Part shown: positions 15,027 to 62,527 of the stretch, piece by piece
Layout: the number at the start of each line of letters is the position of its first letter
How positions within the stretch are numbered: position 1 is the stretch's first letter
DNA from: Squalus acanthias
Lineage: Eukaryota
Direction of reading: 5' to 3'
DNA: 64,000 bases
Assembly: GCA_030390025.1 (NCBI GenBank)
Contig: CM059429.1
Location: forward strand, 56,482,001-56,546,000
Position numbers and translations under genes: made by a program
The notes under the pieces: model-generated
What the model was told of the DNA's origin: nothing
The model's input: only the letters and a program-made list of their open reading frames with translations
The model's database searches: none

Positions 15027-16934
15027 CTATTTGTGCAGTTTCTTTCTCTTACACGTGCTTCTACGTGGTGGTTCCCCCTTGGCATCAGCAGATGTGGAGG
15101 CCCCTTGCTCACTCTGTTGCTGCTCCTGTCTCGACACCTTGGGCGGGTGTCCTCTGGGGTGCCGAGCCTGTGAGGGCTCGCCAACAGTCTGCTGCTCCTG
15201 CGGCTGTGCAGGGGTTGGGACGCCGATCTCAGTTGGGTGTGGACTCTGGTGGGGCTCTGACCGAGGACTTGTCAGTGGCATGGAAGTGTGAGCGCTTGGA
15301 GAGGAGCCCCCACTTCCTTGTTCTCTGCCACCATCATCCCTCTCATGGGTCAGGCCCACCTCAGCGCTTGCAAGTGGCTTGAGAGCACCTTGCTGCACAT
15401 CAGGGGGGCCATGGGGACCCGTATCTGCACTGGCAGACCTACTCAGAAGAACTTCCATGAAGGTCTGGTTTCTCTGTTCAATAGATGTCCATCGCTCCTC
15501 CAGAGATGTCATTCTATTCAGAACACTCACCATGTTTTCTGCACTCTGGCGACTTATCACCTCCATGGAGGTTGCCATCCTTTCCATGGTGATGCATTCA
15601 TGCGCCAATGACGCCACAAAGGCTCTGCTCATGTTAGCGAGGGACTCCTCCATTCGCTCCACACTCGCAGCTACCCTAGAGACAAAACCTGCCAGAGACT
15701 CCTGCACCTGTTCCTGGAGTTCCAGCACCGCTGTTCTTCTGGATGGACCCGGAGGCACAGGGTCGACATGCAGCTGAGCCGAGCTGGCAGAGTCCTGCGC
15801 CCTCCGACGAGGACTCTCCACTGCTTTCCCTGTCTCCACCATCTGCTGAGGCTCACTTGTGAGCTGTGATACGCCAGGTGACGACACTACTCTATCTCGC
15901 GAGGGTCCCACCGAGGTGTGAGTGTCTGCGCTGGTGCTGGGTGCTCTGAATTCTACTGATGCTGCGCCCTCAGAGGTTGGAGCTTCCTCTGAGGAGTGTG
16001 GAAGCTCAGGCTCTTCCTCCTGGACAGTGGGGATGGGGGCTTTGGATGGTCCTGTGGGGGAGTAAAGGAGAGTTAGAGATGTGAGGTCATGGTTACATGA
16101 ACATTGAATAGTGAATAGTGCAGATGATCATAAGTCAATCAGTTAGAGCATCAGCTTCATTATCAGTGACTCATGCAATGTCAATGAGAGAGATGCCAAA
16201 CTATTCTGCCACCAGCTTGCTGTGATGCGCCCGTCTGTCCGTCCCCCACTTGTGCATCCTCCTCCACTCCCACAATCTCCAGGGCCGCCTCCTCCGCAGG
16301 GGTGAGCTGGGCTACTGAGGGTGGCCCTCCTCCTGTCCTCGCCCTCTCCCTCTTATTGTGGGCTCTCTTTTCCTGCAATGAGGGACACAAGTGGAAAATG
16401 AAGGAGTGAGTGTAGAGATTCCGTAGCATAGATGCTTAGAAGGAGACAAAGATGGAGTGAAGTGCCAGGACCAAGGGCCCTCCCTGTGTGTTGTAAATTA
16501 TTGTCATAGCATCACAGCAATATGGAGTGTGAGGGCTGCATAGTCGAATAGCTAAGTGAATGTGAACATACAGAGGGAATGGGTAAGGGTGCAGGGATGT
16601 CAGTGTCAAGTGGGATGTGGAGGAAGAGGTTGGCAAAGCAGAATGCTGGTGAGGAGAGGCGATGGTGATCAGATTGAGGGTTAAGGGAAAAGTCATACTC
16701 ACTTTTCCAGTGCGCAGAAGGTCATAAAACCTCTTCCTGCCAGGTTCTGTGGCACATAGACAGAGAATTGACCTCCTGGACCACTTGCATCCACACAGCT
16801 TTAGTCTGCTGAGGAGGCTTTTTCCTCCCCGAGGAAGGGAAGAGCACCTCCTTATTGGATCTGGCTCCCTCCACCAGAGCTTGCAGGGCGGCTTCATCAA
16901 AGCATGGAGCAGACTTTGGCCTGCTGCTGGACAC
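15027..16934 (-). pseudogene. Harbinger Myb/SANT-like DNA-binding protein gene (3 exons), frameshifted
   Basis: Exon 1 'FDEAALQALVEGARSNKEVLF..W..V.QEVN' has an 8 bp deletion before RKRF. Exon 2 EKRAHNKRERARTGGG. Exon 3 is open from 16051 to 15027. Confidence 0.85.
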
Positions 16935-30097: not shown

Positions 30098-33000
30098 TTA
30101 GGCAAATCTGGCATGGATTAGTCCATCCCTTGTCTGACGGCCAGCAGTGAGATCGCGTGCTGGTAGCACTGGGACAGCCGCGTCCGCCAGGTGTTCCTCA
30201 TCTGCAGCATCATTCGCCTCTTCCTCCTCCTCCTCCTCCTCTGAGGAGGCTGTGCGCTGTGCCACTTGTTCCTCAGGCAGCGGTAAGCCATGCTGCAGTG
30301 CAATGTTGTGCAGGGAATAGCAGACCATGATGCTTCTTGACACCCTGGCTGGTGAGTACTGTAGGGCTCCACCAGATCTGTCCAGGCATCGGAAGCGCAT
30401 TTTGAGCAATCCTATGGTGGAAATGTGGCTCTCATTGTAACACTCCTCAGCCTCGTTTGATGGCCTCCTCATCAGTGCCATTAGCTACGTCTTTAGGGGA
30501 TAGCCCTTGTCTCCAAGTAGCCATCAAGTTGGGTTGGCGGATTGAAGAGCTGAGGCACAGTGGACTGCCGCAGGATGTACGAGTCATGGCAGCTGCCAGG
30601 GAACTTGGCGCAAACATGCATAATGTTCTTCCTGTGGTTACACACCAGCTGGACGTTAAAGGAGTGGTAGCCCTTGTGGTTGACAAATACAGCTGGGTTG
30701 TGATGGGGTGCCCTGGTGGCCACATGTGTGCAGTTGATGACGCCCTGCACCCTAGGGAAGCCTGCCATATTGGCAAACCCAACCGCCCACGCCGTTACAC
30801 TTGCTTCATCCGTGGAGAAGTGGATGTAATTGGCCGACTTGCCAAACAGGGCATCGGTAACCTGCGTTATGCATCTGTGTGCGGCCGACTGGGAGATGCC
30901 GCTGGTGTCTGCTGCTGACCCCTGGAAGGACCCTGACGCAAAGAAGTTGAGGGCAGTGGTGACTTTGACAGCCACTTGTAAGCAGTGTCCACCCACTCCA
31001 CTGGGCTCCAGGTATTGGTGCAGCATTGTGCAGATGTCTGCGACCACCTCTCGTGAAAGTCTCAGCCTCCTTTGGCACTGCTGCTCAGTCATGATGAGGA
31101 AGCTCATCCTCTGCCTGTAAACCCTGTGTTGCAGGTAACTCCTGCGGCGCGGCGCGGTGCAGCCCTGTGCTGATGGCCTCTGCCTTGTGCAGCATCAGGT
31201 GGCTGAGGAGAAGGTTGGTGCTCCTGTTGTGGGTGCTGCTGGTGTGCCTGGTTCTGCTGCTGCCGCGGCTGCTCGTCCTCCGAATCTGAGGACCCTGATG
31301 AGAGAATATAAATTTTTTCATTTTTTATTCGTTTATGGGATGTGGGCGTCGCTGGCAAGGCCAGCATTTATTGCCCATCCCTAGTTGCCCTTGAGAAGGT
31401 GGTGGTGAGCCGCCTTCTTGAACTGCTGCAGTCCGTGTGGTGAAGGTACTTCCACAGTGCTGTTAGTTAGGGAGTTCCGGGATTTTGACCCAGCGACGAT
31501 GAAGGATCGGTGATATACTTTTAAGTCAGGATGGTGTGTGACTTGGAGGGGAACTTGGAGGTGATGGTGTTCCCATGTGCCTGCTGCCCTTGCCCTTCTA
31601 GGTGGAAGAGGTCGTGGGTTTGGGAGGTGCTGCCAAAGAAGTCTTGGCGAATTGCTGCAGTGCATCTTGTAGATGGTACACACTGCAGCCATGGTACGCC
31701 GGTGGTGGAGGGAGTGAATGTTTAAGGTGGTTTATGGGGTGTCAATCAAGTGGGCTGCTTTGTCCTGGATGGTGTCGAGCTTCTTGAGTGTTGTTGGAGC
31801 TGCATTCAGCCAGGCAAGTGGCGAGTATTCCATCACACTCCTTACTTGTGCCTTGTAGATGGTGGAAAGGCTTTGGGGAGTCAGGAGGTGAGACACTCGC
31901 CGCAGAATACCTAGCCTCTGACCTGCTCTTATTGACACAGTGTTTAAGTGGCTGGTCCAGTTAAGTTTCTGGTCAATGGTGAACCCCAGGATGTTGATGG
32001 TGGGGGATTCGGCGATGGTAATGCCGTTGAATGTCAAGGGGTGGTGGTTAGACTCTCGCTTGTTGGAGATAGTCATTGCAAGGCACTTCTGTGGCGTGAA
32101 TGTTATCTGCCACTTATCAGCCCAAGCCTGAACGTCGTCCAGGTGTTGTTGCATGCGGGCATGGACTGCTTCATTATCTGAGAAGTTGTGAATAGCGCTG
32201 AACACTGTGCAGTCATTTCAGACCTTATGTTGGAGGGAAGGTCATTGATGAAGCAGTTGAAGATGGTTGGGAATAGGACACTGCCCTGAGGAACTCCTGC
32301 AGCGATGTCCTGGGGCTGCGATGACTGACCTTCAATCACCACAACCATCTTCCTTTGTGCTAGGTATGGCTCCAACCAGTGGAGAGTTTTCCCCCCGATT
32401 CCCATTGACTTCAGTTTCACTAGGGCTCCTTGATGCCACACTTGGTCAAATGCTGCCTTGATGTCTAGGGCAGTCACTTTAACCTCACCTCTGGAATTCA
32501 GCTCCTTTGTCCATGTTTGGACCAAGGCTGTAATGAGGTCGGGAGCCGAGTGGTCTTTGCCAAACTCAAATTGGGCATCAGTGAACAGATTATTGGTGAG
32601 TAAGTGCTGCTTGATAGCACTGTCGATGACACCTTCCATCACTTTGTTGATGATTGAGAGTAGACTGACGGGGCGGTAATTGGCTGGATTGGATTTGTCC
32701 TGCTTTTTGTGGACAGGACATACCTGGGCAGTTTTCCACATTGTCGGATAGATGCCAGTGTTGTAGCTGGACTGGAACAGCTTGGCTAGAGGCGCGGCTA
32801 GTTCTGGAGTACAAGTCTTCAGCATGACAGCCGGGATGTTGTCGGGGTCCATAGCCTTTGCTGAATCCAGTGTGCTCAGCTGTTTCTTGATATCACGTGC
32901 AGTGAATCGAATTGGCTGAAGACTGGCTTCTGTGATGGTACGGACCTCAGGAATAGGCCGATGTGGATCATCCACTCGGCACTTCTGGCTGAAGATGGTT

Positions 33001-33828: not shown

Positions 33829-36800
33829 TATGCTGGTGAAAATGTCACTTGAGGATGGAATGTTATAAGCGTTCAGTAAAGTGTAGAGAGGTTATTCCAG
33901 GGAGGTCACAGTGTATATAGATCTCACAACACCTGAACAATGTCTTCAACATCCTGCAATCAGAAAGTTCAGGCTTTTGAAATTCAACTAAAGTGGCAGG
34001 TTAGCTTTAATGCTACTCTTGCAGCTGTGAATTATTCAGCTTGTTGGAACACCCGACTCAATCAGCTGGCGTGTTCCTGGAACGCTGCGGAACACGCTGA
34101 AAATGTTGCAAAATTGAAAACCCCTATCAAAATATCATTAAACAGCTAGTTAACAGTTAACTACCTTAACTGCCTCTCCCGCCGCTTGGTGTCGGGTCTG
34201 ATCAGGAGTCGCAGACTCGACTCCTTGGAAAGTCGCATGGAGGCGGGTTTGTGGCGGATTAGCAACCCGCCATCAATCATCTTGGGTTTAACTCCGGAAC
34301 TGCCCTCTGAGCGCTGGCAAAATCGCGGCCATTGCAAGACTTCACATTCATAACCATGTTATGTAGAAGGTAGTAGAGGTTTTAAAAAACTATTAACTCT
34401 TTTAACATCTCAAATGTTACTGTAAAATAGAGGAAACCTTCCATGTATTTTTTTGAGAGGAAATCAACCCATGCAGAGGAAGGGAAAATTTTATATGGTG
34501 GATTAAAATGTTCAACCTATTGGTTTTCACTGTAGCTTTTCTTCCAGTCTATTTTTTCAGCTGACAAGATGCTGCAGAATATGCAATGCACAGCTGATTG
34601 AGAGGACAGGAGCCCTGAATTAAGATGCTTCTATTTTATGTGAGTGCTGTTGACTGCCAACATGTGGCTCTCCTTAAGGAAAATCACCTGATCTCTGTAC
34701 ACCTCACAGTAGATTTTTGTGGGTCTTGTGTTTTGTCTTTGGATCAATTGTCTGCTGCTGTGGCCTGCCAAACATGCTGTCTCAGCTCAGTACATCGACG
34801 TGCTTACATCCTGATTTAAAATAGTGTTGTGATATGAGCTTGGTGACACATGGGACCAGTTCAGCTTCAAATCAGTGATCTGAACCATCTTTACATATCA
34901 CTGATACAAGATGTGCAGTTTAACTGCATTAGTATAATTAACTGTGGCAACCAAAAAATTTTTTTTTTTCATTTTCATGAATTGCATGATAAAAACACGA
35001 TCGCAATTTTCCAATGGCCCTGGTCATGTGTATCTCCACTGAGAAGGTGGATGATCTAACCTGGGCCTCTTGGGCCAGCTGACTGGAGATGCGCAGTGCC
35101 AGATTGGGATTGATTCTATCTGATTCATCACTGGCCAGCTTCTCTCACTACATCTAGGCATCTTCCTACAGCAACAAAACTGAGTTGGTGATTCAGCAAT
35201 TTACTGTAGGCATGACTGCATGTTCACTACTTCATGATACTATGTCTTGGTGGTCAACAGGCTATATTTCATACCCATTCTTATAAAGTGTTTAGAAATT
35301 AATCATTTATTAATTAGTATAATTTGCTGTGATGAATTAACTAGGGAGCAAGTAGTATATAAAGACCAACTAAATCTAAAAAAGAGTATGGACAGTGTAA
35401 CACACAGTAAATATTATCAATCTTATAATTAAAACGTTCTTAAATGTAGTGGAATATAATATTCTGACATATCATAAATTCACTCCTCCAGGAAGTCCAT
35501 TAACTGTAATGATATGACAGATATCTGACCTTAATCCTTCTTGACTGACATTCATATTTTGGCTTCTCCTACAGCATGATTTTTGTTAATATTGACTGGG
35601 TCATTTGGTGAAGGAAATATTTGTTAAATTAGGTCTCTCCCATAATGCTTAATTACACATTGATAACTCCTATTAAGATTTCTATGGTTTGGTTGTATTA
35701 CACTGCTCACCCAGAAGGAGTTTGGCTCACTAATTTGCTGGAGGTACTGCATGTATGTGTGGTGACCTGACTGGGTTTCGTACTATAGTAGTCAATTTTC
35801 AGTTGCTGTTCTATTCAATGTAACGAGTTAACCTAACTCTGTGTGCATGTGTGTGAAAGAGAGAGAGAGACTCAAGCCAATTGCACGGATCTTTTCAACA
35901 TATTTTGTGCTGAATGTTTATGCTCTTCAAAATAAGAGATGTCAATAAAATAGAAGCGTATTCCACTTTCGGCAACCTATTTCAGCATAAGGCAATCCCA
36001 GGTCAAGTATAGCAATGAGTAAATCCAGAGTAAAGTTCCCTCAACTGTGCCCCAAATATGTGCTTTAACTCTAATCACAGAAAAGCATGCCCTACTGCAT
36101 CAGAAATGATATAATTTAGATTACAATATACATAAATAATAATTAAAATTATTTAATTATATTAATGAGTTTCCTGAATCATTTCAGCATGCATACTGGA
36201 CGCTTATGGGGGATCCAATATGGTGGCTGATGCACTTCTGGTGGGAATGAGCGGCACCTGCCACTCGCCATTGTACTACTAAGTGCTCACTTTACGCCTG
36301 TAAAACGGGAGGAGTGCCAAGATTAGTGGAAGGCCAGAGGATTGGGAAATTTTTAAAAACCAGCAAAGGACGACTAAAAAAGAATAAAGAGAAGATCGAT
36401 CATGAGAGTAAACTAGCAAGAAATATAAAAACAGATAGTAAGAGCTTCTACAGGTATATAAATAGGAAAAGAGTAGCTAAAGTAAACATTGCTCCCTTAG
36501 AGGATGAGACTGGAGAATTAATAATGGGGAACAGGGAAATGGCAGAGACTTTGAACAAATATTTTGTATCAGTCTTCACGGTAGAAGACACTAAAACCAT
36601 CCCAATAATACATAATCAGGAGCTATAGGGAGGGGGGAACTTAAAACAATCACTATCACTAAAGAAAAAGTACTTGGTAAAATAATGGGACTAAAGGTGG
36701 ACAAGTCCCCTGGACCTGATGGCCTGCATCCTAGGGTCTTAAAAGAATTGGCTGCAGAGATAGTGGATGCATTGGTTGTAATCTACCAAAATTCCCTGGA

Positions 36801-38558
36801 TTCTGGAAAGGTCCCAGCGGATTGGAAAACCACATATGTAACGCCCCTATTTAAGAAAGGAGGGAGACAGAAAACAGGAAACTATAGACCAGTTAACCTA
36901 ACATCTGTCATTGGGAAAATGCTGGAGTCCATTATTAAGGAAGCAGTAGCAGGACATTTAGAAAACCATAATACAGTCAAGCAGGGTCAGCATGGTTTTA
37001 TGAAAGGGAAATCATGTTTGACAAATTTGCTGGAGTTCTTTGAGGATGTAACGAGCAGCGTGGATAAAGGGGAACCAGTGGATGTGGTGTATTTGGATTT
37101 CCAGAAGGCATTCGATAAGGTGCCACATAATAGGTTACTGAACAAGATAAGAGCTCACGGGGTTGGGGGTAATATATTAGCATGGATAGAGGATTGGCTA
37201 ACTAACAGAAAACAGAGAGTCGGGATAAATGGGTAATTTTCCGGTTGGCAAACGGTAACTAGTGGGGTGCCACAGGGATCAGTGTTGGGGCCTCAACTAT
37301 TTACAATCTATATTAATGACTTGGATGAAGGGACCGAGTATAATGTAGCCAAATTTGCTGATGATACAAAGATAGGTGGGAAAGCTAGGTGTGAAGAGGA
37401 CACAAAGAATCTGCAAAGGGATATAGACAGGCTAAGTGAGTGGGCAAACATTTGGCAGATGGAGTATAATGTGGGAAAGTGTGAGGTTATCCACTTTGGT
37501 AAGAAAAATAAATAAGCAAATTATTATTTAAATGGAGAGAGATTAGAAAATGCTGCAGTACAGAGGGATCTGGGGGTCCTTGTGCATGAAACACAAAAAG
37601 TTAGCATGCAGGTACAGCAATTAATCAGGAAGGCAAATGGAATGTTGGCCTTTATTGCAAGGGGTATGGAGTATAAAAGCAGGGAAGTCATGCTACAACT
37701 GTACAGGGTATTGGTGAGACCATACCTGGAGTACTGCGTACAGTTTTGGTCTCCTTATTTAAGGAGCGATATACTTGCATTGGAGGCAATTCAGAGAAGG
37801 TTCACGAGGTTGATTCCTGAGATGAAGGGGTTGACTTATGAAGAAAGGTTGAACAGGTTGGGCCTATACTCATTGGAGTTTAGAAGAATGAGAGGTGATC
37901 TTATTGAAACATATAAGATACTGAGGGGGCTCGACAAGGTAGATGCAGAGAAGATGTTTCCCCTCATGGGGGAATCTAAAACTAGGGGGCATAGTTTCAG
38001 AATAAGGGATCGCCCATTTAAAACTGAGCTGAGGAGGAATTTCTTCTCTCAGAGGGTCATAAATCTATGGAATTCTCTGCCCCAGAGAGCTGTGGAGGCT
38101 GGGTCATTGAATATATTTAAGGTGATGATGCGGAGATGCCGGTGTTGGACTGGGGTGGACAAAAGTGAGAAGTCGCACAGCACCAGGTTATAGTCCAAGG
38201 GGGAAAAATTAGGTCGCGCCCCGTTTGGGGCGCAAATATCGTCTGGACGCAAATATTAGCGCCTGGCGCTAATTATCGCCACTGACTGGAAACTTCACTT
38301 TTACCGCCCCGGGAGGTGAGTGGAGCGCTAAATCAGGCGCTGCACACCTGTCTTAAGGCGCAAAGGCCGAGCAGTGAGGCGCTAACTCAGCGCGCGAGCG
38401 CAGCGCAGGTGCTGCCAGTTAGCGAGGGAACACAGACACACTGGCGCCGGCCAGTTCTTAAAGCGGCGGGGGGCCAACTTGCTCCCCAGCCACACCCTGC
38501 TCATTGCAGCCTTGAATCTCGGCCTGGAGAGACCTGTGAATCCATTTTGCTGCCAAGG

Positions 38559-40369
38559 ATGGAGAGGGTGAGAGAACGAGCTCATCGCTTCACCGAGCGG
38601 GCCTTGGATGCTCTAGTTGGCGCGGTGGAGCGCAGAAGATGTATACTCTTCCCTGAGAGTGGCAGGAGGCCTTTGCCACGCGAGTACAGAAGAGTGTGGA
38701 GGGAGGTGGCTCAGAGCGTCTCCTCCAGGAGCATGGTGCCCAGGACCCATGTTCAATGCCGCAAAAAGTTCAACGACCTCACTCGGGTCGTCAGGGTGAG
38801 TGGCTTTTTCTCAATACCTCTCCATCCCTCCATCTCAACCTCACTCTATGGCCAGAGGGTCTTAAAACCCCAATGCACAACACTCATCCAACACCTATGG
38901 CCCTTTCATGAAACACACACACACATTCCACACTTTGCATACAGTAAGGGCTATTCACCTATGGGAGGCACATCAGGCAAGACCATGGCTGCATACAGTA
39001 AGGGCTATTCACCTATGGGAGGCACATCAGGCAAGACCATGGCTGTATATTTACTCAGATGCTGTCCTTTTTCTTACAGGCCAAGCTGGCGCATAATCGG
39101 AGACAGCAGCAACGGACAGGTGGAGGGCGGCCTCAGCTGCAACCCCTCAGCGATCTTGAGGAGCGCGTCCACAGGATTGTGGCAAGCCGGGTGATCGGTC
39201 CCGTCGCCACTGGAGACGCCGACCCCGTTCTGGACAGCAATGGTAAGGTCATCACCTTTTTGTCCTCTGTCCTTCCACTTGTCCCTCACAACACCAGCCT
39301 TTGACACTTTCAATCCAACTTGCTAACTCGCTGCACTTATTCCTCCCTTACTGCCACCCTGTCCTCACGCTAAAGCCACTCTTGTACCTCCCTGCTTTCA
39401 GATGGTGATTCACCAGCTGAGGAGACGGGCCCTGAAGCTGCCACTGGGAGTGAAGCTGCAGCCGAGGAGGAAGAGGAAGCCGGAGCATCAGTGCCACCCT
39501 CTCCCGAGGAAGCCCATGCCCACACTGGGAACACGCCTTCCCTGGAGGGGAGCAGGGGGGAAGGGTCTGATGAGGGTGAAGCTCCAGGACCCAGCGGGCT
39601 GCAGCAACGCCATGGGGGTAGGGAAGAACGGGGGCCTTCTCCCCAGAGGGAGAGTATGCCAGAGACTCCTACTGCAATGGACGCAGAGGAGGAGCGGCTG
39701 ATCGCAGAAATGAACACCCAGGCGGTGGGCATGCACACTGAGCTCATGGGTGCAGTGGGAAGGGTGCCCGAATGCATTGAGTCACTGGCAAGGAGTGTGG
39801 AGCACTTCACTGTAGCACAGGCGGATGCCACACTAACGCTTAGTGCTGCAATTCAGTCACTGACTGCCGTGATCCCATCTCTGACTGCTCTCATGCAGAC
39901 TCAGATTGAGGCCACGCGAGCACTGACTGCTGCCAACCTCGATGGTTCGTTCACATGTCCCCGGGGCTCTCACCGCGCCGCAGCAGGCCAGCAATCTGTG
40001 CTCCAGCAGATTGCTCCGGATGCTGAAGTGCTGGCCCGTGGGAGTGCCAGTGTGTCGGGCGAGCAGGGAGTTGCTGTCCTCTCTCACGATGACAGCATTC
40101 CTGCTGCCAACACTGTCACTTCTCCACTGCACTTGCCACCGCCTGTAGGACAGACTGCTGCCGCCCATGCAGAGTTGGTGCAGTCTGCAGCCGGGCCCTC
40201 CAGGCCCAGAACTGGTCGAGGCCGTCCTTCAGGGGCATCTGCAGTGTCAGGGTCTGACGATCAGCAGCCTTCCACCAGCCTTGCTGCAGCCACTGAGGTC
40301 CCATTACGGAGGAGCAGAAGGGGGGAAGTGCGCAAGGGAAGGAGATCACCCTCGAAGGGCAAAAAGTAG
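38559..40369 (+). CDS. Harbinger Myb/SANT-like protein, 3 exons (38559-38795, 39080-39242, 39402-40369), 455 aa
   Basis: GT-AG introns with compatible phases (0, 1). MERVRERAHRFTERALDALV..W.EVA..CRKKFNDL, RTGGG motif, acidic region, coiled coil and basic C-terminus. No stops. Confidence 0.85.
38937..39044 (+). repeat. Perfect 54 bp tandem duplication in Myb intron 1
   Basis: GCATACAGTAAGGGCTATTCACCTATGGGAGGCACATCAGGCAAGACCATGGCT x2. Confidence 0.95.
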
Positions 40370-40681
40370 GAGGTGTGACAAAATGCTGGTCATTTTTTTA
40401 TTAAAGGCCGAGGTTCGTGGTCCAACTTTTATTTAGTGTTTTGGACATTATCTCCAGGTTGTGAGAACCAGTTATGTTATTGATTGTTTTTTTGTGTTTA
40501 TTTCTATGAGTTTGTCATGAGGAAATGACACACACAGAGTTTGTAAAATAAATAAGTTTTTGTATTCAAAATATACATGTTTGGTGTTTGGAATTATTGG
40601 TGCCTTGGCCGGCTTAGGGGTTGCGTGCTGGGTTCATTGATGTTGTTAGCAATGGCAGAAGCCATTTCCACAGCAGGGGCC

Positions 40682-41842
40682 CTAGAAGCGGCTTGCTATT
40701 AGCCGTTGACGGACGGCCCTTGCAGTTTCACCATTGTGGGCCGCCCTCCCGCCTTGGTGCTGCTGATGATCATCCTCCTCGTCCTCTTCCTCCTCTTCCT
40801 CCTCCTCCTCTGGTGGTGCTCCAAGGCCTGGTGGCATTGGCTGGGTCCTGACGATTGCCATGTTATGCAACATGCAGCACACAACTACGAAGTTGGATAC
40901 TCGCTCAGGCGAGTACTGCAGGGCTCCCCCAGAATGGTCGAGACAGCGGAACCGTTGCTTCAGCACGCCGATTGTGCGCTCAATGATGTTCCTGGTAGCT
41001 TGATGGCTCTCATTGTACCGCAGCTCAGCAGGGGTGTTGGGCGTACGGAGCGGTGTCATCAGCCAGGTGCTCAATGGATACCCCTTGTCCCCGAGAAGCC
41101 AACCAACTGGCTGATGCGGTGCCTCGAAAAGTTCTGCCACAGTTGTCTGGCGCAGGATAAAAGCATCGTGGCAGCTGCCAGGATAGTGGGCATTGATAGC
41201 GAGTATCAGCTGTCTGTGGTCACAGACCAACTGAACATTCAAGGAATGGAACCCCTTTCTGTTCCGGAATTCCTCGGCATTCTCATGTGGAGCACGCAAA
41301 GCCACATGCGTGCAGTCAATGGCGCCCTGCACCATGGGGAAGCCCGCTATCCTCGCAAAGCCCAGAGCGCGGTCACGCTGCTTGTCTGGGGTCATGGGGA
41401 AAGAGATGAACTCTCGTCTCCTTTTAAAGAGGGCATTTGTGACCTGCCGGATGCAGCAATGCACCGCGAACTGGGAGATATTGGCGAGGTCCCCAGCAGC
41501 AGCTTGAAATGAGCCAGTAGCATTGAAGTTGAGAGCCACTGTGACCTTCACTGCCACCGACAGAGACGTCCTGGACCTCAGTTGAGGCTGCAGATCTGGC
41601 TGCAGCAGGTGGCAGAGCTCAGTGACCACCTCCTTGCTGAATCGCAGCCTTCGCAAACACAGCTCCTCAGACATATGAATGTAGGAGAGCTGTTCACGAT
41701 ATACCCTGGGAGGGTAAGCTCTCCTGTACATACACCTGTTGGCCCTCCTCCGTCTGGCCATCATTGCCACTCTCTCTCTGCGTCTCTGTGTCCTCCGATT
41801 CAGCTGGAGCAGGACGATGCCCCCAATCAGTGCAGCCCCCAT
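40682..41842 (-). CDS. Harbinger (HARBI1-like) DDE transposase, 386 aa
   Basis: GAIDCTHV (D), NRKG, YPGSCHDAFIL, LGDKGY (D), IIERTIGVLKQRFRCL (E). Open from the ATG at 41842. Confidence 0.93.
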   Translation of the reverse strand: MGAALIGGIVLLQLNRRTQRRRERVAMMARRRRANRCMYRRAYPPRVYREQLSYIHMSEELCLRRLRFSKEVVTELCHLLQPDLQPQLRSRTSLSVAVKVTVALNFNATGSFQAAAGDLANISQFAVHCCIRQVTNALFKRRREFISFPMTPDKQRDRALGFARIAGFPMVQGAIDCTHVALRAPHENAEEFRNRKGFHSLNVQLVCDHRQLILAINAHYPGSCHDAFILRQTTVAELFEAPHQPVGWLLGDKGYPLSTWLMTPLRTPNTPAELRYNESHQATRNIIERTIGVLKQRFRCLDHSGGALQYSPERVSNFVVVCCMLHNMAIVRTQPMPPGLGAPPEEEEEEEEEDEEDDHQQHQGGRAAHNGETARAVRQRLIASRF

Positions 41843-42371
41843 AGTCTCTTTGCAAGCAAAGTAATGAAGGACAGCAACCAAAGTAGCAGCGAAGTTAGGA
41901 TCAGTAGGCAAAACTACCTCACAAAGCGTTGACTCAATGCAGAAGTCTCTCTTTCTCTCTCTCCGAATCTCTCTCTCTCTCTCAGAACGAGTGGTGCAAA
42001 AATGTCGACCACAGAAAAAGACAGGAAGAGGCCCCCTTTAAATAGCGCCCCCCCCAGCCCCACAGCGATTGATAGCGTTCCAGTCTTCCGGTCGTTGGAT
42101 GCGCCAGGCGGTAAGGCAGGGGGCGCCACTCAATTTCCGCTCCGGGTCGCCACAAGGGCGTTGCACCATGGAATGACATCACAATCTGCGCACGCAGGTG
42201 GTCGCGGCGGTAAAGTTTAGCGCCGCCGCACAATGTCTAGTTAAGTTCCCGAGCGGCGCAAACATCGCTGCGCCCGGGCGTTAGCGGCTTTGCGCCCCAT
42301 TAGCGCCCTCTTAAGGCGCTAACGGGAGGCGCAACCAACTGAATTTTTACCCCCAACAGTTTTATTTGAAA

Positions 42372-42409
42372 TCACAAGCTTTCGGAGCTGCTGCCCCTTT
42401 GTCAGGTGA
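42372..42409 (-). ncRNA. Minimal hammerhead-ribozyme motif of the Penelope pLTR (left arm; G8A variant)
   Basis: Reverse complement of the motif at 43393-43430. Confidence 0.6.
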
Positions 42410-43392
42410 AGTGAAGGAATACGAATCAGCAAAGCATATATAGACAGAGAACAATGCATGTGTAGCGTACAATGTCAGACGACTACATTTAATCCTCCTG
42501 ACTGCCTTTCGTCACACCTCGGCAGAGAAACAATCAGGTCAGCCAGGAAGGCACCACATCAAAGACATAGCAAGATACAACTGAGACAATGAGGTGGGGG
42601 TCACAGGGGGTCTAATGTGTCAAATGCTGCAGTCTGTATGGAAAACCATAAACTTTAAAATTTTTACTTTTTTACTGGAAATCACATCTGTGAACAAGCC
42701 AACGACGACTCGAGTCTGGATGACTCTACGTCATGTAGCGTGACATGAACCCCAGATCCCGGTTGAGGCCGTCCTCATGAGTGCGGAACTTGGCTATCAT
42801 TTTCTGCTCGATGATTTTGCAGACCATGCAGACACTGAGACAACGTATGAACGGACACCGCGCAACAATCGCCAGGCAGGATTGTTACCTCCCAGTCGGG
42901 GAACACTTCAGCAGTCAAGGACATTCAGCCTCGGATCTGCGGGTAAGCGTTCTCCAAGGCGGCCTTCGAGACCCACGACAACGCAAAATCATCGAGCAGA
43001 AACTGATAGCCAAGTTCCGCACTCATGAGGACGGCCTCAACCGGGATCTGGGGTTCATGTCACGCTACATGACGTAGAGTCATCCAGACTCGAGTCGTCG
43101 TTGGCTTGTTCACAGATGTGATTTCCAGTAAAAAAGTAAAAATTTTAAAGTTTATGGTTTTCCATACAGACTGCAGCATTTGACACATTAGACCCCCTGT
43201 GACCCCACCTCATTGTCTCAGTTGTATCTTGCTATGTCTTTGATGTGGTGCCTTCCTGGCTGACCTGATTGTTTCTCTGCCGAGGTGTGACGAAAGGCAG
43301 TCAGGAGGATTAAATGTAGTCGTCTGACATTGTACGCTACACATGCATTGTTCTCTGTCTATATATGCTTTGCTGATTCGTATTCCTTCACT

Positions 43393-43430
43393 TCACCTGA
43401 CAAAGGGGCAGCAGCTCCGAAAGCTTGTGA
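43393..43430 (+). ncRNA. Minimal type I hammerhead-ribozyme motif of the Penelope pLTR (G8A variant)
   Basis: TCAC-CTGACAA-A-GGGGCAGCAGCTCC-GAAA-GCTT-GTGA: stem I TCAC/GTGA, stem II, GAAA box and a palindromic AGCT mini stem III. Confidence 0.6.
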
Positions 43431-46332
43431 TTTCAAATAAAACTGTTGGACTATAACCTGGTGTTGTGCGACTTCTCATATTTAAGGTAGAGATAGACAG
43501 ATTTTTGAACAATAAGGGAGTGATGGGTTTTGGGGAGCGGGCAGGGAAATGGAGCTGAGCCCGAGATCAGATCAGCCATGATCTCATTAAATGGCGGAGC
43601 AGGCTCAAGTGGCCAAATGGCCTACTCCTGCTCCTTTTTCTTATGTTCTTATGAATGTTTAGGCCATGAATAACTCGCAATTTACCAAAGCAGTTGCTGC
43701 GGGCATGCAAAGACTTTAAGAGATTGTGCAAAAGGGTACCAACAAGCAAATCACAAATTACTTGTAGATGCATGTTCCAAACATTCTGGTTTAGCACGTG
43801 ATGAATAACTCTGCATTTGGCCTGTATACAAAGTTTTAGGTAATGAGACCAGCTGGGAGAGGTTTCCACAGGCAGGAGAAGCAATGAGTGAAGTGTACTT
43901 CTCATATTCCACATAAACCTTTTGATTGATACAGAATGTTAAAATGGAGCTGCACAGCTCATGTTCCTGGTATAAATGTGAAGGTCTGCCTTAAGGACAT
44001 GCAGTCTAGTCTGTATCCAGCTGCCCTAGAGAGGGACTACTGTGAATGTATAGTATATACCAGACATTATTTGTGTAGAAGAACTTGAGCAGCATGAGTA
44101 TCGGTCTCTAATCTGACAGGCTTTTAGATGTAGCATAACCTCAGATGTTCTAAGTGTTGTTTAATACTTTGTGTCTGCAGGAGAGGCCAAATGGATTGCC
44201 TTCTCTGTAATGACCTCTTCACTGTAAAATGATTTTTGCTGTTGAACTCATGCTGAAGATCATTAAACATTACAAAAATGACCTAATGACACGAGTGTCA
44301 TAAAGTAAAAGGAATGTTAAATTGGCAATGAGATACTGTAGAAAGAGACATCCCATAGCCATTTCTTGAATAACACTAGAAAAAAATGGATGCACAGTTT
44401 GAAATTTTGCAGCTGACTCTCAAGCTCTCTGTTGGGTAAGACAAACAAAGTACTTGCTATACAATCCTAACCTTATTTCACGCAGGGTCCACTCCCCTAT
44501 ACCATCGCTGGGAGCTGTAAAAATACAATGCCCACAAATAACTTAGAGTGGTCACAATTAATTAATGGAAAAGATTTTATGATCAATGTACAATTATTGT
44601 TATCTCATGGATACTGTAAAAGATCTATCCACTATGAGGTCAGTACAGTCATGTAATAACATTTTATTTCATTTCAGCACCTGGTTTAATGCTGACGTTG
44701 GTGGGGTGAGGACTCAGGGACCAGAACTTGCATATCTTCTTGTGTCATTTTCAAGCAATGCATTGTGCTCCAAAAAAGAAGACAATCTAATGACTGTAAT
44801 CATCTCAATGCCTGGGATAAACTTTTATATTTTTTTAAGACTAAAATATGGATTGCATGAATTTTTAAACTTTATATTTTGCCTAAGGAGCTGTCAGGTA
44901 TTTGGGTACGGTTTTATTTTGTGATCCTTCCCTGGAGCATTCCCTTAATACAATTAATTGAATAAGGAGAACTTTGGAATGCCTGGGGTATTCTATTAAG
45001 TGGTTTCTACTGTATTTGCATCTGGTTTCTTTTAAAGAGCAACTAACCTGAAATTATAACTACGTAGACTAGAAAATCACTAACTATTAACTTTTTCCTG
45101 GTATCCAAAACAGGAAAAAATGTTTAACTAATTTCAATTTAATACAATGGCAATTCCTGAAAGTCTGAAGAAGTTGGAAGGAAACAATTTAGTTTTTTTT
45201 CCAAGTGAATCAGTGCAGGAAGCTACATACAACTCCCCTATGTATTTTTATACTGGGTTCTACTGTTGTACACTGTTGTTGAGAAGTGATGTTATCACTG
45301 AAGGCAGGAAGTTTAAGGTACAGAGAAGACATTTCGTTGCAAATCATTTTTTCCTAACTTTTTATTCAATAAAAATAACTCAAGGGTCAAACATTCTGTT
45401 GTCGTGGTTGGCCATTGCAGTACAAGATGCACTTGCAACAGAATAAGAACATAAGAACATAAGAAACAGTTGCAGGAGCAGGCCAATCAGCCCCTCGAGC
45501 CTGCTCTGCCATTCAATAAGATCATGGCTGATCCAATCTTGGCCTCAACACCACTTTCCCGCTCTCTCTCCATACCCCTTGACTCCCTTGTAGTTCAAAT
45601 GTCTGTCAATCTCCGCCTTGAATATATTAAATGACTCCGCCTCCACAGCTCTCTGGGGTAGAGAATTTCAAAGATTCACGATCCTCTGAGAGAAGAAATT
45701 CCTCCTCATCTCCGCCTTAAATGGGTGACCCCTTATTCTGAAACTATGCCCCCTAGTTCTAGATACCCTCACTAGGGGAAACATCCTCTCAGCATCAACC
45801 CTGTCAATCCCCCCTCAGAATCTTATATGTTTCAATAAGATCACCTCTCATTCTTCTAAATTCCAATGAGTATAGGCCCAACCTGCTCAACCTTTCGTCA
45901 TACGTCAATCCCTTCATCCCAGGAATCAACCTAGTGAACCTTCTCTGCACTGCCTCCAACGCAAGTATATCCTTCCTTAAATATGGAGACCAAAACTGTA
46001 CGCAGTACTCCAGGTGCGGTCTCACCAGCGCCCTGTAAAGTTGCATCAAAACTTCCCTACTTTTATACTCCATACCCCTTGCAATAAAGGCCAACATTCC
46101 ATTAGGCTTCCTAATTACTTGCTGTACCTGCATGCTAACTTGTGTTTCATGTACTAGGACCCCCAGATCCCTTTGTACCGCAGCATTTTGTAGCCTCACT
46201 CCATTTAAATAATAATTTGCTTTTTCATTCTTTCTTCCAAAGTGGATAACCTCACATTTTCCCACATTATACTCCATCTGCCAAATTTTAGCCCACTCAC
46301 TTAACCTATCTATATCCCTTTGCAGACTCTTT

Positions 46333-49300
46333 GGGCTCGATTTTGCCAGGCCCGAGGAGGCGGGATTGGAGGCGTGTGAGTTGTTAAAATCGCCAAAAAT
46401 GGCAGGTGGGCCCGATCCCGCCTCCGAGCAATTTTCCCAAAAGCGTGTTTTCTGACCCCCTTTCCATCCCGCCTCCAAGAGGCGGGATAGGCCCTTAAGG
46501 CCCTTAACAACCACTTAATGGCCTCTATAATCCCATTTTGAGAGGCCTTTCCGATTTTTAGTCATTCCCCCCATCCCTCACGCCTCCTCTGGAACACGCC
46601 AGGTAATGCTGGCGGCCTCACAAGTGGATTGCTTACGAACAGCTGCAGCTCCACCATTAAAAAGGAGTTTTCACCAATGATCATTTGCAGGTGACAGAAC
46701 TTTGTTGTTTCAGGTCTGGGGAAACTTTTAGCAGGCATACTCAGTGTTGTGGAAGTTTGGAGCCTGACACCCATCTCCAGTGTGACCTCCTGGGAAACCC
46801 CTCTCCTCACCTTGACTAAGCGCTTCCTCAACTGAGGCATATACCAGAAGCATGGCGACCATTTAATTCCTTTCCTCCTGGACATCAGATTCAGATGAAG
46901 ACCAGCCGCGGCAGCAGCAGAACCATGAGCAACAGCACCACCAACAGCAGGAACATCAACAGGAGCGCCAAGCTGCTAGTCACCCACCTGAAGATGCATA
47001 GGCCAGAAGTCGCCAGAGCGCGACCATATTGCTGCCCGGGATGCAAGGGACGAACTCATGTTGGTCACATTTGCTTAGCCTGTACACTCAAACACTTTTG
47101 CCTCGCACCTTCTTACCAGAGCATCGACATTGGCCAGGAACCTGCGGATTCCTATCACTCTGACCACCATACTGACAATTGCAAGTCGCTCTAAGCCCTC
47201 AATGTGGAAGTCCCATTTGCGAAATGATACAGGCCACAACTTCAACAGTTTGCCATCAGAATTTTTTATCACAACAAGCAACTGGTGGCATTTCAAAAAT
47301 AAACACAACATAACACCCAAGTGACTACCCTTGTGACTACTTGTGCATTATCTTCCTCTTATGCGTGCTCCTACGTGGTGCTTCCCCTGTGGCTTCAGCA
47401 GATGTGGAGGCCCCTCGCTCACTTTCTTGCTGCTCCTGTCTCGACACCTTTGGCGGCCGTCCTCTGGAGTTGCGAACCTCTGAGGGCTCGGCAACAGAGT
47501 GCTGCTCCTGCGGCTGTGCAGGGGATAAGACGCCCATCTCAGTTGGGTGAGGACTCTGGTGGGGCTCTGACCGAGGGCTTTGCAGTGGCATGGTCGTTTG
47601 AGCGCTTGGAGAGGAGCCCCCACTTCCTTGTTGTCTGCCACCAACATCCCTCTCATGGGTCAGCCCCACTTCAGAGCTAGCAAGTGGCTTGACAGCACCT
47701 TGCTGCACTTCAGGGGGGCCATGAGGACCCGTTTTTGCACTGGAAGTCCTACTCCAGAGGACTTCCATGAAGGTCTGGTTTCTATGCTCAGTAGCTGACC
47801 ATCGCTCCTCAAGAAATGCCAGTCTATTCTGAACAATGACCATGTTTTCTACACTCTGGCGACTTAGCTCCTCCATGGCCGTAGCCATCCTCTCCTCTAC
47901 TGTAGCCATCATTTCCACGGAGGTTGCCATCCTTTCTGTGGTGATGCGTTCATGCGCCAACGCCTCCACAAGGGCTCTGCTCATGTTCGCGATGGACTCC
48001 TCCATTCGCTCGACACTCGCAGCGACCCTGGAGATAAAACCTGCCAGAGACTCCTGCACCTGTTCCTGGAGTTCCAGCACCGCTCTCATTCTGGATGGAC
48101 CCGGAGGCACAGGGTCGACATGCAGCTGAGCCGAGCTGGCAGAGTCCTACGCCCTCCGACGAGGACTCTCCACTGCTGTCCCTGTCTCCGCCATCTGCTG
48201 ATGCTAACTTGTGATCTGTGATACACCAGGTGACAACACTACTCTATCTCGCGAAGGTCCCACCGAGGTGTGAGTGTCTGCGCTGGTGCTGGGTGCACTG
48301 AATTCTGCTGAGGCTGTGCCCTCAGAGGTTGCAGCTTCCTCTGAGGAGTCTGGAAGCTCAGGCTCTTCCTCCTGGACAGTAGGGACGGGGGCTTTCGATG
48401 GTCCTGTGGGGGAGTAAAGGAAAGAGTTAGAGATGTAAGGTCAAGGTTACATGAACATTGAATAGTGCAGATGATCATAAGTCAATCTGTTAGAGCATCA
48501 GATTCATTATCAGTGACTTATGCAATGTCAATGAGAGAGATGCCAAACTATTCTGTCACCAGCTTGCTGCGATGCGCCCATCTGTCCGTCCCCCACTTGG
48601 GAATCCTCCTCGATCCCAGTGATTTGCAGGGCCGTCTCCTCCCAGGTGGTGAGCTGGGCTACTGAGGGTGGCCCTCCTCCTGTCATGTCTCTTTCCCTCT
48701 TATTGTGGGCTCTCTTTTCCTGCAATGAGGGACACAAGTGGAGTTTGAGTGAGAATGAAGGAGTGAGTGTAGATAATCCATAGCATAGATACTTAGAAGG
48801 ATACAAAGGACCATCCCTGTGTGTTGAAAGTTGTTGTTGTCATGGCATCACAGTGATAGGGAGTGTGAGGGCTGCATGGTCAAATAGTTAAGTGAATGTG
48901 ACCTTCGAGAGAGAGGGAATGGGTAAGGGTGCAGGCATGTAAGTGTCAAGTGGCATGTGGAGGAAGAGGTTGGCAAAGCAGAGTGCTGGTGAGGAGAGGC
49001 AATGGGGATCAGATTGAGGGTGATGGGAAAGTCATACTCACTTTTCCTGTGCGGAGAAGGTCAGGAAACCTCTTCCTGCATTGCAGCCAGGTTCTGCAGC
49101 TCAGCAAAATGGAGTTGACCTCCTGGGCCACTTGCAGCCACATAGCTTTTGTCTGCTGGGGTGGCTTTTTTCTCCCTGAGGAAGGGAACAGCACCTCTTT
49201 ATTACTTCTGGCTCCATGCACCAGAGCTTGGAGGGAGGGCTCATTAAACCAAAGTGCACACTTTTGCTTGATCGTGGACATTGTCGGGAAATCAACACCT

Positions 49301-49561
49301 TCATACAATTTGCAGAGCCTTTGCAGTCTCCAGAGGAAGCAAGGCTGCTTGCAGGTCTTAAATCCAGCAGCATTGATGACGTCATCGGAGGCGACTTTCT
49401 GTATGAAAAGACTCATTGGGCCAGGTGTTCCCACACGCAGGAAATCAATTGCCCAATTAGGGGAAAATCCCACTTTTTCAACACTTCACTTAGGAGTCAG
49501 GGTCCTGACACGATTTCCACCTGACACGCCCCAGCCCGCCCACACTGACAAAATCCAGCCC
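46333..49561. mobile_element. Non-autonomous Harbinger (family A, copy 3)
   Basis: TIR GGGCTCGATTTTG / CAAAATCCAGCCC, TSD TTT. Removing it restores CR1 RT. Transposase stub at 46852-47078. Confidence 0.93.
47337..49281 (-). pseudogene. Harbinger Myb/SANT gene (exons 49281-49042, 48719-48560, 48403-47337) with one premature TAG (~48204-48206)
   Basis: MSTIKQKCALWFNEPSLQALV..RTWLQCRKRF; EKRAHNKRE..TGGG. AGT TAG here, where copies 1 and 2 have AGT GAG. Confidence 0.85.
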
Positions 49562-52500
49562 TTTGTGTCCTCCTCACAACTTGCTAACCCACCTATCTTT
49601 GTTTCATCAGCAAATTTGGCTACAGTACACTCGGTCCCTTCATCCAAGTCATTAATATAGATTGTAAATAGTTGACGCCCCAGCACTGATCCCTGTGGCA
49701 CCCCACTAGTTACTGATTGCCAACTGGAAAATGACCCATTTATCCCGACTCTCTGTTTTCTGTTAGTTAGCCAATTCTCTATCCATGCCAATATATTACC
49801 CCCAACCCCATGCGCTCTTATCTTGTGCAGTAACCTTTTATGTGGCACCTTATCAAATGCCTCTTGGAAATCCAAATACACTACATCTACTGGTTCCCCT
49901 TTATCCACCCTGTTTGTTACATCCTCAAAGAACTCTAGCAAATTTGTCAAAAACGATTTCCCTTTCATAAAATTATGTTGACTCTGCTTGATTGTCTTAT
50001 GATTTTCTAAATGTCCTGCTATTACCTCCTTAATAATGGAGTCCAGCATTTTCCCAATGACAGATGTTAGGCTAACTGGCCTATAGTTTCCTGCTTTCTG
50101 TCTCCCTCCTTTCTTGAATAGTGGTGTTACATTTGCGGTTTTCCAATCCGATGGGACCTCTCCAGAATCCAGGGAATTTTGGTAGATTACAACCAATGCA
50201 TCCACTATCTCTGCAGCCACTTCTTTTAAGACCCTAGGATGCAGGCCATCAGGTCCAGGGGACTTGTCGGCCTTTAGCCCCATTAGTTTGCCTAGTACTT
50301 TTTCTCTCGTGATAGAGATTGTTTTAAGTTCCTCGCTCCCTATAGCCCCTTGATTATCTATTATTATTGGGATGTTTTTAGTGTCTTCTACCATGAAGAC
50401 TGATCCAAAATAATTGTTTAGAGTCTCTGCCATTTCTCTATTTCCCATTATTAATTCCCCAGTCTCATCCTCTAAGGGACCAACGTTTACTTTAGCTACT
50501 CTCTTCCTTTTTATATATCTGTAGAAGCTCTTATTGTCTGTTTTTATATTATTTGCTAGTTTACGCTCATACTCTATCTTCTGCCTCTTTATAATTTCTT
50601 TAGTCATCCTTTGCTGGTTTCTAAAAATTTCCCAATCCTCTGGCCTACCACTAATCTTCGCAACATTGTATGCCTTTTCTTTCAATTTGATACCATCCTT
50701 AACTTCCTTAGTTAGCCATGGATGGTGTATCCTTCTCGTAGAGCCTTTCTTTTTCACTGGAATATACCTTTGCTGAGATTTATGAAATATCTCCTTAAAT
50801 GTCTGCCACTGCTGATCTACCGTCTTACCCTTTAATCTATTTTCCCAGTCCACTTTAGCCAACTCTGTCCTCATACCCTTGTAATTGCCTTTATTTAAGT
50901 TTAGGACACTAGTTTCAGACCCAAGTTTCTCACCCTCAAACTGAATTTGAAATTCTACCATGCTATGATCACTCTTCTGAGGGGATCCTTTACTATGAGA
51001 TCATTAATTAATCCTGTCTCATTACACATTACCAGATCTAAAATAGCTTGCTCCCTGGTTGGTTCCTCAACGTATTGCTCTAAGAAACCACCCCGAATAC
51101 ACTCTATGAACTCGTCCTCAAGGCTACCCTTGCCAATTTGATTTGTCCAATCTATATGATGATTAAAATCGCCCAGGATTATTGCAGTACCTTTCTTACA
51201 AGCCCCCATTATTTCTTGACTTATACTCTGTCTTACAGTATAGCTGCTGTCAGGGGGCCTATTGACTACTCCACCAGTGACTTCTTACCCTTACTATTTC
51301 TTATCACCACCCAAACTGATTCTACATCTTGAGCTTCTGAGCCAATATCATTCCTCACCACTGCAGTGATCTCATCCTTTATTAACAGAGCTACCCCACC
51401 TCCTTTTCCTTTCTGCCTATCCTTCCAAAATGTCAAATACCCCTGAATATTCAGTTCACCTTGCAACCATGTCTCTGTGCCGTCAACTCATCTATCTTGT
51501 TACGAATGCTGTGTGCATTCAGATAAAGAGCCTTTAATTTTACCTTATCATTTTTACTTACTCTGACTCTATTTTCTGATGCACTCTTATGCTTGTACGC
51601 ACTGCCCCTTCCTGATACATTCTGGTTATCGTTACCCCTGTCGTTGCCCTGCACAATTGCCTTCTCCTTTCTCCTTGCCTTCCTAAATACACCTTTACCT
51701 GAACCCCTATCATCTATTTCCAGCTTAGCTTTTCTCCCTTCTGATTCTACCCTCAGGTTCCCATCCCCCTGCCAAGCTAGTTTAAACCCTCCACAACAGC
51801 ACTAGCAAACTCCCCCGAGAGGATATTGATCCCGTTCCCGTTGAGGTGCAACCCGTCTGGCTTGTAGAGGTCCCACCTCTCCCAGAAACAGTTCCAATTC
51901 CTCAGGAATCTAAAGCCCTCCCTCCTACACCATCTCTCCAGCCATACATTCATCTGCTCTATCTTCCTATTTCTGTACTCATTAGCATGTGGCACTGGTA
52001 GTAATCTGGACCTTTGAGGTCCTGCTTTTTAACCTCTTTCCTAGCTCCCTAAAATCTGCCTGCAGGACCTCCTCCCTCTTTCTAACTATGTCGTTGGTAC
52101 CGATATGGACCACGACCTCTAGCTGTTCATCCTCCCCCCTCAGAATGCCCTGCAGCCATTTGGTGACATCCTTGACCCTGGAACCAGGGAGGCAACATAC
52201 CATCCTGCAGAAACGCCTGTCTGCTCCCCTCACTATTGAATCCCCTATCACTATTGCTCTCCCTCTCCTCTTCCCCCCCCCCTGTGCAGCTGAGCCTTCC
52301 ATGGTGCTATGGACTTGGCTCTGGCTGCACTCCCCAGAGGAGCCATCACCCTCACCAGTACTCAGCTGGTTGGTGAGCAAGATGGGCTCAGGGGACTCCT
52401 GCACTACCTGCCTGGTCCTCCTCTTCTGTCTGGTGGTCACCCATTCCCTCTCTGCCGGCACATTCTTAAGCTGCAGGGTGACCACCTCCCAAAACGTGCT

Positions 52501-62309: not shown

Positions 62310-62527
62310 AATATGTAGGAAAGCCCTCGATTATTGCATTAATTTGCCACTGTCTCTAGTGCCCATACTGAATATAGTTCTTGCCCATTTGTTTTGCAAG
62401 CACCTTAATAGTTTGCATGATGCATCAATCTTTACAATATATGCATGTGCAGTGTTTCCAGAAGAGATTTGCCTATGGATAATGTGATGGTCCTCAATGT
62501 TGCCTAAATTTCTGGCAAGAAATTATG

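Follow-up and report, generated by a model that had tools for sequence, protein, structure and literature searches.

Whether a transposon with open genes and well-matched ends is a living element, or a copy that has kept its form since an earlier burst, is the question raised by a PIF/Harbinger element in the genome of Squalus acanthias. It lies in a stretch of 64,000 nucleotides (assembly GCA_030390025.1, contig CM059429.1, positions 56,482,001 to 56,546,000 of the forward strand), which is referred to as the window and whose own numbering is used below. An initial annotation had described it as intact, probably recently active, younger than the Penelope repeat around it, and useful as a tool. 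We conclude, with a probability of about three in four, that it is a full-length two-gene copy left by a past burst, with open reading frames (ORFs) and a transposase that is likely damaged, and that it has likely been immobile since it landed in the Penelope repeat.

The element is 4,155 bp long and its ends are exact (38199-42353), lying between two CAA triplets (38196-38198 and 42354-42356, forward strand) that form the target-site duplication. The terminal inverted repeats (TIRs) are 12 bp long (38199-38210, forward strand; 42342-42353, reverse strand) and read GGGGGAAAAATT on the left and, reversed, GGGGTAAAAATT on the right, agreeing at 11 of 12 positions; boundaries, TIRs and duplication are as the initial annotation had them. 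The transposase is a single exon on the reverse strand (41842-40682, 386 aa), open as described, and matches PF13359 DDE_Tnp_4 (E 6.6e-40) with D176, D252 and E288 present. Together with a separate Myb/SANT gene, short TIRs starting with G, a 3-bp duplication and an extended target preference, this places the element in PIF/Harbinger; it is a complete two-component (PHIS) DNA transposon copy. The abundance of CpG that had been remarked on holds for the two ends (observed/expected 0.86 and 0.98) and not for the genes (0.45-0.55) or the whole window (0.45). These CpG-rich ends (38199-38479 and 41894-42353, forward strand) are the parts retained in a non-autonomous derivative of ~740 bp, and both carry subterminal TTAGCGC/TAGCGCC repeats, with TTAGCGC found four times in the left end, three times in the right end and 0 times in the element interior. 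The TTAGCGC/TAGCGCC repeats are candidate Myb-binding sites, comparable to the 9-bp motif near the ends of the zebrafish element Harbinger3_DR (PMC9710019).

Differences from the family majority in the transposase of the window copy are V9I, R37C, Y107N and V216I. Codon 107 (41522-41524, reverse strand) reads Asn where the family has Tyr; the Asn codon was seen in 1 of 67 sequences (the window copy and the unselected long copies described below), and the four public runs compared all read the family base. Among 109 homologues the column holds Tyr in 77 and Phe in 18, and in a confident transposase model the residue stands at the end of a helix (96-109). Because it is a private change in a column that is Tyr or Phe in 95/109 homologues, Y107N likely damages the transposase of the window copy. 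Inactivating substitutions relative to the consensus, which the initial annotation had named as evidence that would speak against it, are in this sense partly present. Homologues conserve D176 in 97/117 and D252 in 91/114, and the model places D176 within a strand, D252 after a strand and E288 within a helix, an arrangement in which these residues would be catalytic. A sequence search of the PDB with the element protein gave 0 matches at E 0.01 and a Foldseek search none at E 0.001, its best weak rows being DDE transposases and integrases, which leaves the superfamily without a close solved structure at the search thresholds used. The best database relative is only 67% identical to the transposase, and the 76 best of 120 listed relatives are all from elasmobranchs.

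The Myb/SANT gene is read on the forward strand from an ATG at 38559. Exon 1 (38559-38795) encodes the SANT domain (PF13873 Myb_DNA-bind_5, E 6.3e-10), and exon 2 (39080-39242) is followed by exon 3 (39402-40369), which is acidic and of low complexity with a basic C-terminus; Pfam gave no real match for exon 3 or for the short Penelope ORF. Joined, the three exons give an open protein of 455 aa and both introns (38796-39079 and 39243-39401) are GT-AG, in agreement with the splicable partner that had been predicted. Behind 40315, in the basic tail, the window copy has a private in-frame 9-bp deletion, and all four compared runs retain the 9 bases. Intron 1 also holds a 54-bp tandem repeat (38936-39043), the unit number ranging from 0 to 7 in the 66 long elements, with 2 the most frequent.

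It had been proposed that both splice junctions be confirmed in RNA-seq, and one of them is seen in contigs of public runs. In X1 (from organism A) and in X2 and X5 (from organism B) precisely the 159 bases 39243-39401 (GT..AG) are missing, with 39242 joined to 39402 in three of the four runs, with a shorter side of 41 letters in X1 and of only 19 in X2 and X5; the contigs of X16 show no intron 2 joint. The intron 1 junction 38795/39080 was absent from all four runs, where the contigs are short at this place, so that its absence is not evidence against it. The run type RNA is only guessed, introns are covered as well, and the bases in the contigs are those of the family, not of the window copy. 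What these samples demonstrate is that intron 2 of the family is spliced, which is not to say that the window copy is transcribed.

Divergence was assessed within a set of 107 long copies; the 14 short ones, 2 that belong to a 95% sister subfamily, 2 with rearrangements and 1 member of a duplicated pair were not included. The window copy has 8 strictly private substitutions in 3,854 unmasked columns (0.21%, 0.09-0.41%) besides the 9-bp deletion, and 7 more that are shared with 1-5 copies, of which 4 are CpG transitions and possibly recurrent; against the majority of its 28 closest copies it differs by 19 substitutions and the deletion. The tree of the 107 copies is star-like (terminal branches sum to 0.71, internal ones to 0.04), with tip lengths of 0.14% at the shortest, 0.60% at the median and 0.44% for the window copy. 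The closest pair differs at 19 sites, and no near-identical independent insertions were found among these 107 of about 1,000 copies. Because of the star-like tree and the 19 differences in the closest pair, the comparison of copies that had been suggested points to a past burst, without sign of current jumping, and the very recent and pristine copy that had been supposed is not supported, given Y107N, the private substitutions, the deletion and the lack of a near-identical pair. L137 and L138, which differ at only 3 sites, were rejected as a close independent pair, as the sequence flanking them is shared over 9.3 kb and 5.6 kb (99.6-99.9%) and they thus derive from a segmental or assembly duplication. 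L137/L138, L039/L040 and L132 are tandem duplications with nearly identical units, each including a copy of a transposon; one of these duplications borders an N run and may be an assembly artefact.

The surrounding repeat gives a second measure of age. The Penelope-like insertion (38124-43477) consists of arm 1, split by the Harbinger element (38124-38198 and 42357-42820), a spacer (42821-42982) and the inverted arm 2 (42983-43477), and is flanked by an 11-bp duplication (38113-38123 and 43478-43488). Once the Harbinger element is taken out, the alignment of the arms spans 497 columns and shows 2 substitutions and a single 1-bp indel, close to the roughly 2 differences in 500 bp counted at first, and arm 2 retains the empty site that matches the CAA duplication, which bears out the earlier claim that the Harbinger insertion came later than the Penelope one. 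The assignment of the host repeat to Penelope-like elements rests on its longer copies, at loci that match the window arms, since these encode RVT_1 (E 1.1e-8, L213) and a weak GIY-YIG match (L215, E 4.2e-4; its 21 bits fall short of the cut-off of 22.6). Divergence per arm is 0.20% (interval 0.02-0.73%), in agreement with that of the window copy, so that the gene conversion considered earlier is not needed; nor is the agreement a proof of youth. The mutation rate of the epaulette shark is 7e-10 per base per generation (interval 1.4-14.1e-10; PMC10587355), at which the window copy would be about 3 million generations old (1.5-15 million), an estimate good to an order of magnitude only, as the rate was measured in a different species and may be higher in repeats. 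The youth that had been deduced from the Penelope arms does not follow, since 0.2% from a common origin need not mean young if the clock is as slow as that of the epaulette shark (PMC10587355), and an element that is intact and 99% identical need not be recent in a slow-clock genome.

The family to which the copy belongs is large. A 28-base pattern from the left end matches the 3.7-Gb host genome exactly at 1,270 places, and a 28-base word from the transposase does so at 2,976, with sister families among the latter; the family has roughly 1,000 long copies. An unselected sample of 80 left ends, from the first 81 in genome order, contained 66 long copies, 8 derivatives of ~740 bp, 5 of 893 bp and 1 of 1,097 bp. 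Open copies are common in the genome, because both ORFs and the full set of four splice dinucleotides are preserved in 25 of the 66 long copies of this unselected sample; the same holds for 18 of the 28 copies nearest the window copy. In the 107-copy set, which is enriched for copies near the window copy and for which 25/66 is the fairer rate, both ORFs are open in 51, and 19 of these have no transposase change at a conserved column. One copy, L007, equals the family majority exactly in transposase and SANT domain. That the family truly transposed is confirmed by identical target duplications at 25 of 28 loci of the nearest copies, and at 62 of the 74 unselected loci with both ends. The ~740-bp derivative, which fuses family bases 1-281 to 3705-4164, was found at 13 of 29 other loci fetched by the right end, and since 9 of them carry a matching 3-bp duplication, it was mobilised in trans; the 13 short copies differ pairwise by at least 4 bases in ~740. 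Copies apparently cut at base 2,565 proved to be search artefacts (4/4 are full length). At L021, L056 and L157, family members or relatives are inserted beside or into each other's ends.

Private changes in the 28 copies have a dN/dS of 1.02 in the Myb gene and 0.97 in the transposase: single copies decay neutrally after insertion. Fixed differences from the 95% sister subfamily (2 copies) give 0.17 for the transposase and, in the spliced frame, 0.19 for Myb exons 1 and 2 (6 and 10 changes), with about 0.25 for exon 1 (4 and 5 changes) and 2 non-synonymous and 5 synonymous differences in exon 2. Purifying selection has thus acted between subfamilies on the transposase and on Myb exons 1 and 2, and intron 1 is indirectly supported by this selection in the spliced frame. 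When 38796-40369 of the window was compared with L182 and L193, the introns differed at 6 of 443 bases and exon 3 had a dS of 0.008, against a dS of 0.12 in the transposase; the low divergence of introns and exon 3 suggests recombination between the subfamilies or constraint on that stretch.

Target choice was read from 43 unselected insertions outside recurrent repeats. Around an A/T-rich triplet, the sites favour A at positions -7 and -5, C at -2, G at +2 and T at +5 and +7, which gives a semi-palindromic motif of about T-W-A-R-A-S-W-C / WWA-type triplet / G-W-S-T-Y-T-W-A. Target information spans positions -9 to +9 in two samples and the 28-copy set agrees; the family has a target preference of ~19 bp in the form of a loose palindrome. 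Its centre is loose, with 18 different triplets in the 43 sites: TAA or TTA, the strict TWA duplication of PIF/Harbinger, is the commonest yet a minority (14/43), the CWG duplication of NuwaI occurs at 1/43 of these sites and at 0/25 in the nearest-copy set, and for the C/TNA/G target of NuwaII, C -2 / G +2 was found in 57 of 86 symmetrised half-sites and TNA in 16/43. Insertions gather in abundant repeats whose sequence matches this motif. When all unselected insertions are taken (n=62), 12 lie in the octamer tail of a repeat, 7 at the start of the endonuclease gene of a long interspersed nuclear element (LINE; 6/62 if a duplicated pair is counted once) and 0 at the Penelope site. The LINE site, a third hot spot, is a single triplet right where the endonuclease gene begins, in a LINE whose ORF1 is of the esterase type; insertions are found there in both orientations and disrupt ORF2 (L006, L012, L032, L137, L138, L143, L149, L184, L194 and L202).

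The position inside a Penelope arm could suggest that the Harbinger element travels as Penelope cargo, or that the Penelope site is a special target to which some factor guides it. Genome-wide, 675 Penelope arms do carry a Harbinger-type end at the exact same base, and two hairpins (L125 and L130) have a Harbinger-type insert at this base of both arms. These double-arm hairpins were rejected as co-mobilised cargo, as the inserts of L125 diverge like unrelated copies and those of L130 face differently. In the window the second arm is empty and the Harbinger introns are retained; at the 29 other junction loci the passengers are of three kinds, 13 being long, 2 measuring 740 bp and 14 measuring 893 bp, and the outer flanks differ; and 102,102 exact Penelope sites are empty, while no unselected insertion was at the site. 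Of the 675 occupied sites, 9 are exact left ends of the window family in the orientation of the window copy, and 9 of ~1,270 ends amount to an enrichment of ~500-fold over random. The motif score of the site is 9.9 bits, against a leave-one-out median of 8.9 for the 43 non-repeat sites, and the motif alone predicts ~1,070-fold. As the observed enrichment lies within this prediction, the nesting is an ordinary outcome of sequence preference, and the cargo or guided-target explanation is largely refuted and highly improbable. Less probable again, and refuted, is a domesticated host gene pair of the HARBI1/NAIF1 type; the database relatives are named 'putative nuclease HARBI1', but the element has TIRs and target duplications, about a thousand copies of it are dispersed in the genome, and single copies decay neutrally, as in a transposon.

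More weight is due to the reading of the initial annotation, in which the window copy is functional and the family moves today. The ORFs, splice sites, TIRs and DDE residues of the window copy are all intact, intron 2 is spliced in three of the four public runs, and there are sister copies as good as L007 and the 19 without a change at a conserved column. We nevertheless regard it as unlikely, in view of Y107N, of the 19 differences that separate even the closest pair once the L137/L138 duplication is set aside, and of the at least 4 bases between any two of the 13 short copies. A somewhat less likely alternative is that horizontal transfer brought in the family and that, counted in years, the burst is far more recent than the slow clock makes it. 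Runs from six coded organisms contain near-identical family sequence, with word shares of 0.58-0.68 (runs X9-X12, with 0.05-0.08, were left out of the comparison), and the two organisms compared in detail yielded long pieces at 98-100%, which fits a burst older than the split of the six or a transfer between them. The low identity (67%) of the closest database protein would also agree with transfer, which has been reported for Harbinger elements between fishes (PMC9179366). Against this, the 76 best protein matches are all from sharks and rays, and these, like the 95% sister subfamily and older relatives in the same genome, fit long vertical residence; the six coded organisms may moreover be close relatives or one species. 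The past burst with a window copy that is likely damaged accounts best for these data, and several points weigh against it: the catalytic residues and SANT domain of the window copy are unaltered; one of the 109 homologues has Asn at position 107; the model with Asn107 is confident (pLDDT 90.5) and neither shows nor excludes damage; spliced family transcripts occur in other samples, though the RNA status of those runs is only guessed; a small young clade could be missed with 107 of about 1,000 long copies compared; purifying selection between the subfamilies is not seen in exon 3 (15 non-synonymous, 2 synonymous differences); and the age is calibrated on another species.

Past cut-and-paste mobility, mobilisation in trans, target preference and decay are recorded in the copies of the family, and the steps of its movement are inferred from Harbinger3_DR and Ping/mPing (PMC2836001, PMC9710019). 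The Myb/SANT protein would bind the subterminal motifs, likely the TAGCGC repeats, as well as the transposase, and bring the latter to the nucleus and to the element ends; the DDE core would then excise the element and join it to a staggered 3-bp target. As both proteins act in trans, the intact ends of the window copy would stay movable by proteins from a better copy.

It is possible, though we hold it only tentatively, that the best-preserved natural copies (e.g. L007) are a working vertebrate Harbinger whose ~19-bp preference steers it into fixed spots in repeats, namely the CR1 tail (12/62), the first codons of the CR1 endonuclease (7/62) and a single Penelope base. If such copies work, they would be the first vertebrate Harbinger tool obtained without reconstruction, and one that tends of itself to land in repeats. 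Tool candidates are the better-preserved sister copies rather than the window copy; the value is carried by the family and these copies, and the single window copy adds little beyond that. With its hundreds of open copies and its thousand target sites, the family is natural material for a transposition assay and for target mapping. Reportedly, 130 DNA transposons have been surveyed in human cells, and that survey may bear on the tool claim.

Other repeats of the window were also recorded. The target of the Penelope insertion is an older, stop-broken LINE with RVT_1 (36251-43653, forward strand), which runs from 36251 to 38123 and resumes at 43478, and which we take to be of the CR1 type. This copy (36251-38123) and a second one of the same family (45450-51000), inverted and 85-93% alike, lie around the Harbinger element. 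The stretch 43660-45420 is single-copy. Older Harbinger remains (30275-31146, reverse strand; 26362-26580, forward strand; 49051-49281, 16743-16901 and 47337-48146, reverse strand) comprise a transposase with a frameshift (53-57% identity), SANT exons, of which there are three (40-45%), and an ORF resembling the third Myb exon. A non-autonomous element of ~755 bp (62527-63281, reverse strand) has ends 68-75% like those of the Harbinger family.

Among known systems, the rice elements Ping/Pong with mPing (PMC2836001) resemble the window family in having two proteins, a deletion derivative moved in trans and an extended target preference; unlike the window family, they have been shown to be active in nature. 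The reconstructed zebrafish element Harbinger3_DR is alike in its DDE and Myb-like genes, short TIRs, 3-bp duplication, non-autonomous derivative and extended palindromic target. Its consensus AAACACCWGGTCTTT (PMC3016246) shares the flanks of the window-family target (A -7/-5, C -2, G +2, T +5/+7), but its centre is CWG where that of the window family is loose and A/T-rich (CWG 1/43). Both proteins are required in Harbinger3_DR, and its Myb protein binds the ends and the transposase (PMC2836001, PMC9710019); excision of the zebrafish and rice elements is usually precise (PMC2836001, PMC9710019). The frames of Harbinger3_DR were reconstructed, whereas many natural copies of the window family keep both ORFs and need no frame reconstruction. 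This comparison is one of features. In the literature covered, which was without subscription papers and Repbase/Dfam, we found no elasmobranch Harbinger family and no native vertebrate Harbinger assayed as active.

Families of the PHIS type with two intact ORFs (PMC4482050) and well-preserved Harbinger elements in the coelacanth (PMC5381603) are already known. NuwaI and NuwaII (PMC4482050), compared here by features, share with the window family TIRs of ~12 bp starting with GG(G), a length of ~4.2-4.7 kb, two ORFs and the same strand-strand-helix order around D, D and E; the C/TNA/G target of NuwaII agrees with the common C -2 and G +2, its TNA being found in only 16/43 sites of the window family. 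Eleven NuwaI and 22 NuwaII families with two intact ORFs are listed (PMC4482050), with bony fish but no shark or ray among the hosts listed, whereas the window family is from Squalus acanthias. The coelacanth elements resemble the window family as well-preserved, transcribed Harbinger elements in the slow-evolving genome of a vertebrate, where they are described as still accumulating, and differ in host lineage (PMC5381603, PMC9179366). The survey PMC9179366 reports no Harbinger in the elephant shark and calls for other cartilaginous fish to be studied. The window family shows that sharks or rays can hold a large, well-preserved Harbinger family, in a group for which this 2022 survey had none in its one representative (PMC9179366).

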